Shown: positions 7,629-9,912 of the stretch, piece after piece
How positions within the stretch are numbered: position 1 is the first letter of the stretch
How the letters are laid out: each line of letters opens with the position of its first letter
Assembly (NCBI RefSeq): GCF_056746865.1
Contig: NZ_CM163382.1
Reading direction: 5' to 3' (one strand)
Length of the DNA stretch: 64,000 nt
The notes under the pieces: model-generated
Told to the model about the DNA's origin: nothing
Database searches by the model: none
Seen by the model: only the letters and a program-made list of their open reading frames with translations
Made by a program: the position numbers and the translations under genes

Positions 7629-9233
7629 ATGGTAACTAAAAAGGTAAAAACAAACCACCCGTACTATCGTGTTTTATCCGGCACCTCCATGCCGTTTCCC
7701 CACATACATGAAGCTGTTTCCGAACAGTTGCTTCTACTCATTTTCAAAGCACGCAGATTGTATCTGGATCCAGAATATCGTCCTTGGTTTGATGAACAAC
7801 ATCGGATTCTCTCGGCATTACGCGCTAACACAAAACTCCAAAGTATTTTAGAGAAAAACAGAGAGAACTACTCCATAAGTGAGACCGATAATCCACTATC
7901 TAAAGATCTGTATGCTGCTTTTCAGGTTATGTGCCATTTATACAATGGTTTTGATAACAGACTCGTCAGCCTGAAAACCTGGGGAGATATGAACAGGGAA
8001 CCAACAGCAAAATTTGTCGGCCAAAATAGTGGTGGCTGGAAAACACCTGAGATGGAAGAATTCGTCAGAAACGATTTGTTCAATATTCTGACAGATTGTA
8101 AAGCTCATTGCTCACCACTTCCCGCTCTGGTTCGACAAGGATATTGCCATCAGGATCTTTCTGTTGCGCACTCATGTACTAAAGAATTACTGGAACAACT
8201 GAACCGATACCATCAAATTGATGAATCAGCGATACTTGCCAGAACCCTTGGTTTGGCTATTAACAACTGCTATCACTCAGAAACAGAGATTCCTGAATGG
8301 CTTTCTCCTTTTGAAAATGAATACAAAAGTCCCTGGAATTGTGAGAAACCAGATACTAACGATGTGAGTAAACTTAGAAAACAATTGCTAACAATCGGGC
8401 GTACAGAATTCGTGGACAAAATGTTTTCGCTAGCCAACAAAAATGCAACAAAGATAATATATGATGGATACGTTAAACTTTATGCTCTGGAAATATATGA
8501 ATGGTTAAATAAATTAGTGCAATATTTTAAAGGAAATGATTTTATTCGTTACACCTGGAAGTTCACAACAATTATTTCCGATGAAAGTGACACGATTGAA
8601 AACACCACCGCATGGGAAAAAGACTATTGTCAAATCACTATACAGCGTGATGAACTTCTGAAACTGATTTATACCAATACCCTGCAGGATGCAGCAATGA
8701 ATCTTGCTGATTGCCTGCAACAGGCATACACAGAACCGTTAAAAATGGAAATAAATTATCCAGGAATAAACATTGATGCAAAAGAGCGTAAAATTAGAAA
8801 ATCTATTGAATTCAGGAGCGAACTGAATAACTTCACAAACATCATGAAACAACTGGAAATATTTGAAAAATGGTATAACGCCAATAAAATTCTGTTGGTA
8901 AGTAACAAAAAGATACGTACAGAAAAGATTGACGTGAATATTCGTCTTGCAGGACTAAAAGGCTATGATCTGAATGAAGGTATACCTGATGGTCAGGGAC
9001 GCAGAATTAAAGATGGTGTAAATGAACTTGTCAAGGCAGATGGCAGTCTACAACTTCCACAAGATATCAGTGACACTTCGCTTAACCGTTACCGTCAAGC
9101 AGTTCAACACATTATTAAGGATGAGATCGACACGTTGCTGATAGCACAGAGGGAAAAAAATAAAATAAATCCATATAGCGAAGATAGATACTCGATACGA
9201 CCTTTATGGGGAAAATGTCTGGTCGAACAGTAA
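7629..9233 (+). CDS. hypothetical protein, 534 aa, no domain recognisable by eye; integrase-proximal cargo
   Basis: ORF 7629..9233; GGAAG upstream of the ATG; AT-rich; preceded by a 780-bp AT-rich non-coding region. Confidence 0.6.
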   Translation: MVTKKVKTNHPYYRVLSGTSMPFPHIHEAVSEQLLLLIFKARRLYLDPEYRPWFDEQHRILSALRANTKLQSILEKNRENYSISETDNPLSKDLYAAFQVMCHLYNGFDNRLVSLKTWGDMNREPTAKFVGQNSGGWKTPEMEEFVRNDLFNILTDCKAHCSPLPALVRQGYCHQDLSVAHSCTKELLEQLNRYHQIDESAILARTLGLAINNCYHSETEIPEWLSPFENEYKSPWNCEKPDTNDVSKLRKQLLTIGRTEFVDKMFSLANKNATKIIYDGYVKLYALEIYEWLNKLVQYFKGNDFIRYTWKFTTIISDESDTIENTTAWEKDYCQITIQRDELLKLIYTNTLQDAAMNLADCLQQAYTEPLKMEINYPGINIDAKERKIRKSIEFRSELNNFTNIMKQLEIFEKWYNANKILLVSNKKIRTEKIDVNIRLAGLKGYDLNEGIPDGQGRRIKDGVNELVKADGSLQLPQDISDTSLNRYRQAVQHIIKDEIDTLLIAQREKNKINPYSEDRYSIRPLWGKCLVEQ

Positions 9234-9315
9234 CTCACTGAGAAAGGGGATAGCAGTTCGCTATCCCCAAAGGAGACTTTCCAGCAAGATCTCAAAAAAT
9301 GAGACACTCAGCAAA

Positions 9316-9912
9316 TTATGCGGCTTTACCATTAACAGATTCAGCCACAAGAACGACAGCGTGTCTGTTTCGCTCAGGATGTTCACTCCAGATTTCTGAT
9401 TCCGGGATGCTTTTCCCGTCATAACTGATCCGTTCGCCATCAAACGGGTAATACCGTGCGGAATCAGTATCTAAAATAAACACCTTCAGATTCGTTGAAC
9501 GACGCGCAATATGCTGCCAGAGAGCTTTACCTCCTTCATATTGCTCGTTATCACTTAATAGTACAACGCCCGCTTTTGTGACTATCGTTTCATAAACAAA
9601 CGTTGCAAGACCAACATCACGTACAGCGCCATCGACAACAATCCCTTCAATCTGAGCAACATCCTGTTCTTCCCAGAATTTCTGGACAAACACGCCTTCA
9701 AGCCGGGGACGACGCTGAAGCTCCAGAGTGGCAACAACCTTATGGCGAACATCACCATCAATAACAGAAGGTGCAGCTTCGATTACCGCAGCAAACGGAG
9801 TCTTTGGATCCCAGATGATCTGGTAAAGCACGCCCTGAATAGTTACTCCATCCAGTATCGAAAAACGACGAGCTACAGTAGCAGGGGAGTAAGACATTGG
9901 AATTACAGCCAT
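9316..9912 (-). CDS. hypothetical protein, 198 aa (start placed at the internal ATG with GAGGGG RBS; the track ORF extends 10 codons further to a GTG at 9942)
   Basis: ORF 9316..9942 in the track; convergent with the 534-aa gene; near-backbone GC content; no recognisable motif. Confidence 0.5.
   Translation of the reverse strand: MAVIPMSYSPATVARRFSILDGVTIQGVLYQIIWDPKTPFAAVIEAAPSVIDGDVRHKVVATLELQRRPRLEGVFVQKFWEEQDVAQIEGIVVDGAVRDVGLATFVYETIVTKAGVVLLSDNEQYEGGKALWQHIARRSTNLKVFILDTDSARYYPFDGERISYDGKSIPESEIWSEHPERNRHAVVLVAESVNGKAA

Follow-up and report, generated by a model that had tools for sequence, protein, structure and literature searches.

A rare Enterobacterales protein family in the integrase-proximal slot of an ileX-associated island of Escherichia coli: a candidate anti-phage gene

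In Escherichia coli K-12, the CP4-57 element has the gene order intA-yfjH-alpA-yfjI-yfjJ-abpBA, in which a P4-type integrase gene lies at a tRNA or transfer-messenger RNA (tmRNA) gene, AlpA and Gp2/YfjJ-type genes are present, and a cargo gene is located on the strand opposite to int and alpA. In P2-like prophages, defense hotspots have been reported within the late genes (2026 preprint, 10.64898/2026.02.27.708500). An island with the CP4-57 architecture was found in the window analyzed here, a stretch of 64,000 nucleotides from contig NZ_CM163382.1 (RefSeq assembly GCF_056746865.1). Between its AlpA-type gene and its P4-type integrase lie two convergent open reading frames (ORFs), a gene for a protein of 534 amino acids (aa) (7629..9233, plus strand) and a short gene on the minus strand (ending at 9316). 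This arrangement, described in an earlier reading of the sequence (hereafter, the original prediction), was confirmed by our ORF scan and by RefSeq, where both products are annotated as 'hypothetical protein' (WP_000256688.1 for the 534-aa protein and WP_000268404.1 for the short one); identical genes are present in E. coli strain 165. The original prediction treated the pair as a single, possibly anti-phage, module. Our best explanation, drawn from sequence comparison and held with moderate confidence, is that the two genes would be functionally independent pieces of cargo in a CP4-57-like island that has integrated at ileX, and that the 534-aa family would represent a new anti-phage gene family.

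The statement that the 534-aa protein has no recognizable family was borne out by every resource searched. No match was obtained in Pfam, NCBIfam, PADLOC or PHROG, either for the protein itself or via its homologs (19 family members in the case of Pfam). In PADLOC-DB v2.0.0, a database from 2023 that misses later-named systems, zero families were matched by the 534-aa protein, ten of its homologs, the short protein and the acidic partner described below, and no sequence match was found in the PDB, even at E <= 10 with a broad profile. The AlphaFold model is of good confidence (predicted local distance difference test, pLDDT, 78.9; predicted template modeling score, pTM, 0.80) and mostly helical with two small sheets, and its Foldseek comparison with AFDB50 returned only members of the same family and two uncharacterized proteins at 11% identity. 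Three family members or fragments in AFDB (A0ABC7ZZ27, A0A085GKA2 and A0A376U8N3) carry public names, namely 'tRNA-dihydrouridine synthase' for two AFDB50 entries and 'propionate/acetate kinase' for one. These names, which are mutually inconsistent and have no Pfam match and no profile or fold support, were rejected and look like propagated annotation errors.

The family is rare. A profile search of 1.84 billion representative proteins yielded 42 clusters at 50% identity, about 15 of them full length; a scan of 100,044 genomes, one per species, recovered eight loci, all from Enterobacterales; and no copy was found in 50,697 phage records. The RefSeq and UniProt accessions of these proteins are not mentioned in the literature or in the supplements searched, and the main text of the E. 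coli defense-island survey does not mention this site. The 534-aa family is, in short, a rare, Enterobacterales-restricted and previously undescribed family with a predicted, mainly helical fold.

We aligned 18 family members with identities down to 18% and found ten invariant polar residues (E32, Q33, R42, D109, R169, Y172, H174, D447, S481 and R487). The most conserved motif is RQGYCH (R169-Q-G-Y-C-H174), an R-x4-H pattern in which R169, Y172 and H174 are invariant and the histidine stands at the start of a helix in the model. The original prediction had called this motif unconvincing, a judgment that the invariance of R169 and H174 down to 18% identity overturns. The residues E32-Q33, R42, D109 and R169-x-G-Y172-x-H174 of the N-terminal helical region would form a candidate catalytic center, possibly of a HEPN-like RNase. 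Compared with an allele of 97% identity, the gene has 14 non-synonymous and nine synonymous differences (dN/dS, the ratio of the corresponding rates, is 0.40) and is therefore coding and constrained.

From its homologs elsewhere, the family appears to be accessory cargo that moves with mobile elements and defense islands. Known defense genes are immediate neighbors in five independent loci. The large gene is adjacent to a type II methyltransferase and a restriction enzyme in Enterobacter, to a McrB-like protein in Buttiauxella, to AbiO/Nhi in Siccibacter, and to GajA and GajB of the Gabija system, together with an integrase, in Pectobacterium; on a metagenomic contig, PprDinG and pPIWI_RE_REase genes are located upstream and a HEPN_LA2681 gene downstream. 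The other contexts are accessory slots of mobile elements. In Klebsiella (four loci, L004-7), the gene lies in a P2-like prophage between the tail genes S and V, in the orientation opposite to the late genes; on two viral contigs it follows the tail fiber and umuDC-like genes of a lambdoid prophage; on a further viral contig, type II restriction-modification (R-M) genes are found about 3-6 kb upstream; and on a Citrobacter IncF plasmid the gene is flanked by insertion sequences (IS), with an AbiEii gene about 4.4 kb away. Family members are also present on Klebsiella, Citrobacter and Raoultella plasmids and prophages.

An anti-phage role is supported because the homologs adjoin type II R-M, McrB-like, AbiO/Nhi, Gabija and pPIWI-RE genes and sit in prophage and plasmid slots, and the fact that the matching island type, CP4-57, carries AbpAB adds to this reading. 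Judged by this association with defense genes, we consider a defense function of the 534-aa gene about evenly balanced between true and false, and the protein would most likely act as an anti-phage effector of the abortive-infection type. The same contexts bear on the idea that the protein helps to maintain CP4-57-like islands by regulating their excision, replication or transfer. Such a role would agree with the constant alpA-X-GNAT-int position of the gene in Escherichia (X being the large gene, and GNAT the short one, see below), but the family also occurs in P2-like tail modules, at lambdoid prophage ends, in IS-flanked plasmid segments and at chromosomal sites that lack int, alpA and yfjI. 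Moreover, the corresponding slot of K-12 CP4-57 holds the unrelated YfjH, and the island backbone genes are 80-99% conserved compared with 57-60% for this gene, which makes a maintenance role very improbable.

Outside Escherichia, the sole recurrent neighbor of the large gene, as established by an all-against-all BLAST comparison of neighboring ORFs from 14 loci, is a divergent gene located immediately upstream. It adjoins the large gene in Klebsiella, Serratia, Enterobacter, Buttiauxella, Siccibacter, Pantoea and Pectobacterium, as well as on IncF plasmids and four viral contigs. The encoded hyper-acidic protein of about 145 aa (ORFs of 148-159 aa) contains 46-48 Asp and Glu residues versus 11-12 Lys and Arg residues, and the two proteins diverge in step (pairwise identities of 60-94% versus 63-91%). 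Each of the ten plasmid matches of the acidic gene lies on a plasmid with a copy of the large gene, and wherever coordinates are listed the two are adjacent. Since the flanking genes differ in every genus, the large and the acidic genes form a mobile two-gene cassette. This conserved partner, which is absent from the island studied here, is at odds with the original view of the 534-aa and short genes as one module. No match to the acidic protein was found in PHROGs, NCBIfam or Pfam, including ArdA, Ocr and any annotated anti-restriction family.

The exception to this pairing comprises three mnmE-adjacent loci (L019, 7062-7667; L035, 1855-2498; and L036), where a Gly/Ala-rich gene for a 107-117-aa protein and a gene for an 88-aa protein replace the acidic partner. 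Neither protein has family matches; the former is glycine-zipper-like and possibly membrane-active. No homology was detected among the small upstream genes (those for the 88-, 84-, 107- and 145-aa proteins); the small proteins are thus mutually unrelated, and the acidic one is therefore the only recurrent partner. In Serratia marcescens (L008, 2257-13063), the cassette is surrounded by genes for proteins of 568, 279 and 1039 aa without Pfam or PADLOC matches and for an FRG-domain protein, with weak PDC-S15 hits; these surroundings may represent an uncharted defense island.

By analogy with known acidic proteins, we infer that the partner would be a nucleic-acid-mimic-like inhibitor or a sensor partner of the large protein. 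A more specific version of the anti-phage reading, which we offer tentatively, is that the 534/540-aa family could be the effector of an undescribed anti-phage system with a new fold, that the acidic protein, as a nucleic-acid mimic, could hold the effector inactive or serve as a bait for phage DNA-binding or anti-restriction proteins, and that the Escherichia alleles would be partner-less and rapidly diversifying. The Escherichia lineages have lost the acidic partner or never had it, and the copies in their int-alpA slot are strongly diverged alleles.

The charge of the partner also fits a different role, in which the large protein and its partner serve the mobile element itself, through anti-defense or establishment functions (an acidic DNA mimic blocking restriction) or another lysogenic-conversion trait. 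The extreme negative charge resembles that of the Ocr- and ArdA-type DNA mimics, the cassette occurs on prophages, conjugative IncF plasmids and integrative islands, and defense and anti-defense genes are both concentrated in mobile-element hotspots. However, several copies lie beside resident chromosomal R-M, Gabija, AbiO and pPIWI-RE genes, where an inhibitor of host defense would be counter-selected, and the P2-like prophage copy is transcribed against the late operon, similar to exclusion genes expressed in lysogens. The failure of the acidic protein to match ArdA, Ocr or anti-restriction families and the lack of copies in the phage record set likewise speak against a role in serving the element, which we regard as unlikely.

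The tight pairing and co-divergence of a small acidic and a large protein would equally be expected if the pair were a selfish toxin-antitoxin addiction module, the large protein being the toxin and the acidic one its antitoxin, with no role against phages and with the Escherichia copies as silenced or inactivated orphan toxins. In Escherichia, both the large gene and the DNA upstream of it are rich in AT, and DNA of this sort is usually silenced by H-NS, as would presumably be the case here; truncated copies exist as well. On the other hand, the orientation of the pair is divergent, not operonic, and about 257 genomes carry the Escherichia allele in intact form, with all the invariant residues retained and the dN/dS value given above. 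We consider a purely selfish addiction module quite improbable; it overlaps with the anti-phage explanation, since defense is also a function of many toxin-antitoxin systems from such contexts.

Within Escherichia, the segment of 3.1 kb from the window was found in 257 of 5426 complete E. coli genomes, the integrase in 438 and the short gene in 693 of them. Sister islands have the order alpA, a gene for a protein of 54x aa, and the short gene, with or without this integrase, and are located at ileX (L011-L018 and the E. albertii locus L029), at a thrW/proA-side locus (L038) and at another tRNA site (L024). None of the Escherichia alleles has the acidic partner. Compared with the sister islands, protein identity is 99% for the integrase, 93% for the short protein and 77-80% for AlpA but 57-60% for the 534-aa protein; at the DNA level, identity is 95-100% for int and 90-97% for the short gene versus 55-76% for the 534-aa gene, whereas the spacer upstream of the latter is at random level and cannot be aligned. 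The two genes are thus syntenic by descent in Escherichia and evolve very differently, the large gene being represented by several deeply diverged alleles in near-identical flanks. The int-alpA slot had been predicted to be variable, and this holds for the allele; the gene content is constant, as every sampled relative carries both genes. In one island (L025), the large gene is truncated by IS1 and its short neighbor is intact.

The identity profile breaks exactly at a hairpin between the convergent genes (9246..9268), a perfect 9-bp inverted repeat (GGGGATAGC/GCTATCCCC) that is GC-rich and has a fold energy of -21.6 kcal/mol (z = -4.2). At this point identity to the sister islands falls from >90% to about 60%. 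As judged from the sequence, the hairpin is likely a bidirectional terminator and may be both a terminator and a recombination boundary. The suggestion of the original prediction that the two genes were acquired separately is supported by this drop, with the short gene at 90-97% on one side and the 534-aa gene at 55-76% on the other.

These data bear directly on the proposal that the 534-aa and short genes constitute one accessory, possibly anti-phage, module requiring both proteins. The genes are adjacent and convergent in all sampled Escherichia islands (at ileX, on the thrW/proA side, at another tRNA site and in E. albertii), as such a module would demand. Outside Escherichia, by contrast, each gene occurs without the other: no homolog of the short gene was found beside the large gene in the non-Escherichia loci examined (about 13 distinct contexts), and the short gene is present without the large one in five P1-like phage records, in about 130 plasmids, on an F-like plasmid and in a chromosomal bacteriocin-like cluster. 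Nor do the two proteins co-diverge (93% versus 57-60%), the recombination breakpoint lies exactly between the genes, and convergent orientation with a terminator hairpin implies separate transcripts. The pair also departs from a type II toxin-antitoxin system, whose genes are co-transcribed and co-occurring. On these grounds we regard the single-module proposal as improbable and favor two independent cargo genes.

Several points nevertheless weigh against the reading of the 534-aa gene as an independent defense gene. The argument for defense is one from association, and anti-defense genes and further fitness genes are likewise carried by mobile elements. Small size combined with a very acidic composition is also the hallmark of DNA mimics that counter restriction. 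Without a partner that is otherwise universal, the Escherichia alleles may work differently or be decaying, and truncated copies of the large gene exist (L025 and the AFDB fragments). Finally, both genes are adjacent in every sampled Escherichia island, at three or more integration sites, and a lineage-specific functional link between them in Escherichia is possible.

The short gene was originally described as a 198-aa gene starting at ATG 9912. The ORF is real, but its length is probably 208 aa (9316..9942). The codon GTG 9942, ten codons 5' of this ATG, has its own GAGG Shine-Dalgarno sequence, with a TATAAT box about 15 nt further upstream. In a comparison of the window, a sister island, phage SJ46, an Enterobacter plasmid and a metagenomic chromosome, the ten extra codons show mostly synonymous changes (CCG/CCT, TTA/CTG/TTG, GGG/GGA, GAT/GAC and TCA/TCT). 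The separate Shine-Dalgarno sequence and this pattern of substitution therefore make the longer form the more likely one.

The short protein is not family-less, as had been supposed: a PHROG 7522 match spans the entire protein (E = 2e-129), which has a GNAT core fold. Its R98-D-V-G101-L-A103 motif, in which R98, G101 and A103 are invariant among 15 sequences, corresponds to the acetyl-CoA motif A (Q/R-x-x-G-x-G/A) and lies between a strand (84-93) and a helix (100-113), and Tyr125 at the start of helix alpha-4 is also invariant. The Pfam GNAT profiles gave only a sub-threshold Acetyltransf_1 hit (E = 0.16-0.17), with none of the 15 members reaching E <= 0.001, and a homolog search with the GNAT alignment produced close relatives only among the matches listed. 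The R-x-x-G-x-A loop and the alpha-4 tyrosine are shared with the GNAT superfamily, whereas the N-terminal part is beta-rich in place of the usual alpha1-alpha2. The GNAT-fold product would be an acyl-CoA-dependent acyltransferase, encoded by a free-standing accessory gene of mobile elements with its own promoter and start.

Homologs of the short gene were found in several types of mobile elements, none of them with the 534-aa gene. The protein is 87% identical to the products of P1-like phage-plasmids SJ46 and RCS47, whose genes are located between bplB and the lytic replicon, in the slot occupied by pmgF in P1, and the gene is present in about 130 plasmids, mostly of P1-like size, at 80-90% protein identity. 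A homolog with 73% identity (L028, 7001-7606) lies in the conjugative leading region of an F-like Enterobacter plasmid, next to an antirestriction gene (PF03230), DUF5983, SLT and traM. Conjugative leading regions are a known cluster site of anti-defense genes. Another copy is chromosomal and located beside a bacteriocin-type ABC/C39 cluster. Given this distribution over P1-like phage-plasmids, a leading region and island ends, the protein may help mobile elements to become established. P1 PmgF (98 aa, 'putative morphogenetic function'; L003, 3995-4291) occupies the same slot as the full-length SJ46/RCS47 gene but matches only the first ~63 residues of the GNAT protein and lacks the catalytic half; it appears to be what is left of a truncated GNAT gene product and not a morphogenetic protein.

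The 534-aa gene is preceded by an AT-rich spacer of 779 bp (6850..7628), the presumed promoter or 5' region, which contains only short ORFs of at most 50 aa, none of them credible. As stated in the original prediction, an AT-rich gene (38.3% GC) thus follows AT-rich non-coding DNA (34.0% GC). The short gene, for which near-backbone GC had been claimed, has 46.6% GC (36.2% at third codon positions), close to the island average (43.8%) and int (43.3%) and not to the core part of the window (51.4%). No trace of the acidic partner gene was detected in the spacer by tblastn with the acidic protein, even at E <= 10; promoter-like sites are no more frequent there than in shuffled sequence; and the spacer contains no Rfam family. 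An Rfam sn2903 hit (E = 0.023, far under the gathering score) at 9910-9999, outside the spacer, was rejected as spurious.

The island backbone is represented by an AlpA-family regulator/excisionase gene (6622..6849, minus strand; phrog_2790, E = 3e-22), whose orthologs in the sister island L011 match PF05930, and by the P4-type tyrosine integrase gene (10042..11358, minus strand; phrog_1 and NF007246 matches), whose orthologs contain Arm-DNA-bind_3 and Phage_integrase domains. Adjoining int is the 3' part of ileX (11555..11600, plus strand; about 46 nt, or 46-52 nt if counted from 11549), which is 100% identical to the 3' ends of tRNA-Ile annotated in most E. coli genomes. This places the insertion of the island at ileX, and the window carries the attachment-site repeat only. 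An integrase-proximal cargo slot in an ileX island was correctly predicted, and the layout matches that of CP4-57. A complete ileX is not present: neither ARAGORN nor Rfam detected a complete tRNA in the window. In K-12, the gene order at this site is mug-ileX-nfeF. In complete genomes the island spans >48 kb and ends with CP4-type genes (YeeP-like GTPase, Ag43, antirestriction, RadC-like and YeeU/CbtA), and the intact ileX must lie at that far end, beyond the window.

The CP4-57-like features of the island include the integrase at a tRNA 3' end, AlpA and two YagK/YfjJ-Gp2 genes in the same order, with yfjI missing from the window. The position of yfjI (DUF3987) in relatives and in CP4-57 is taken here by two AT-rich genes without a recognizable family (5031-6559), one for a 248-aa protein (5813..6559, minus strand) and one for a 186-aa protein (5031..5591, minus strand) with weak C-terminal helix-turn-helix hits resembling invertases or sigma region 4; they may be further unexplored cargo. 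The pair of YagK/YfjJ (inovirus Gp2-like) genes, encoding 188 and 204 aa, is located at 3441-4649. In the matching RefSeq record an IS3 transposase lies alongside, and the first gene of the pair is apparently shortened (408 bp).

If the 534-aa gene is a defense gene, the E. coli immune repertoire would gain a system without sequence or fold relatives, present in about 5% of complete E. coli genomes if this allele alone is counted and in about 13% if all alleles are included, with the linked GNAT gene as their proxy. The acidic partner would then provide a handle on how the effector is restrained or triggered, and the partner-less Escherichia alleles would offer a natural comparison. For genome scans, the case is instructive in that adjacency within a single species, of the 534-aa and GNAT genes, was misleading, and the real partner emerged only across other genera.

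Among described systems, the HEPN abortive-infection and toxin RNases resemble the 534-aa family in the R-x4-6-H motif, present here as R169-x4-H174 in a mainly helical N-terminal region, and in defense-island neighborhoods. However, the four-helix up-and-down HEPN fold was not detected by structure comparison of the 534-aa protein, no HEPN profile matched it or the 19 family members, and hhalign of the family with the one HEPN_LA2681 protein gave a probability of 0.3%. The 534-aa protein is also far larger than a HEPN domain, and its residues E32, Q33, R42, D109 and Y172 fall outside the HEPN definition. Because there is no HEPN fold or profile match, we do not claim HEPN membership.

The acidic partner is comparable to Ocr, ArdA, barstar and Im-type inhibitors in its small size (~145 aa), its ~31% content of Asp and Glu, its net charge of about -35 and its tight linkage to one larger protein. 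It differs from them in having no sequence match to such families, and it has no copy in the E. coli locus studied. The hotspots of P2-like prophages (old/tin, Z/fun and late-gene sites) are paralleled by the Klebsiella homolog, which together with its acidic partner occupies the S-V slot, whereas the copy in the window resides in an integrative island and not in a P2 prophage, and the 534-aa gene matches none of the systems described there, as judged with PADLOC. The closest parallel to the island itself is CP4-57, with yfjI/DUF3987 being retained in the sister islands of the window island. The differences are that CP4-57 is integrated at ssrA and the present island at ileX, that the latter contains an extra GNAT gene and two genes replacing yfjI, and that the slot cargo is unrelated (YfjH and the 534-aa family gave an hhalign probability of 0.3%). 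Neither the 534-aa family nor its fold nor the acidic partner is described, while the type to which they belong, a candidate defense gene carried as cargo of a mobile-element hotspot, is a familiar one.

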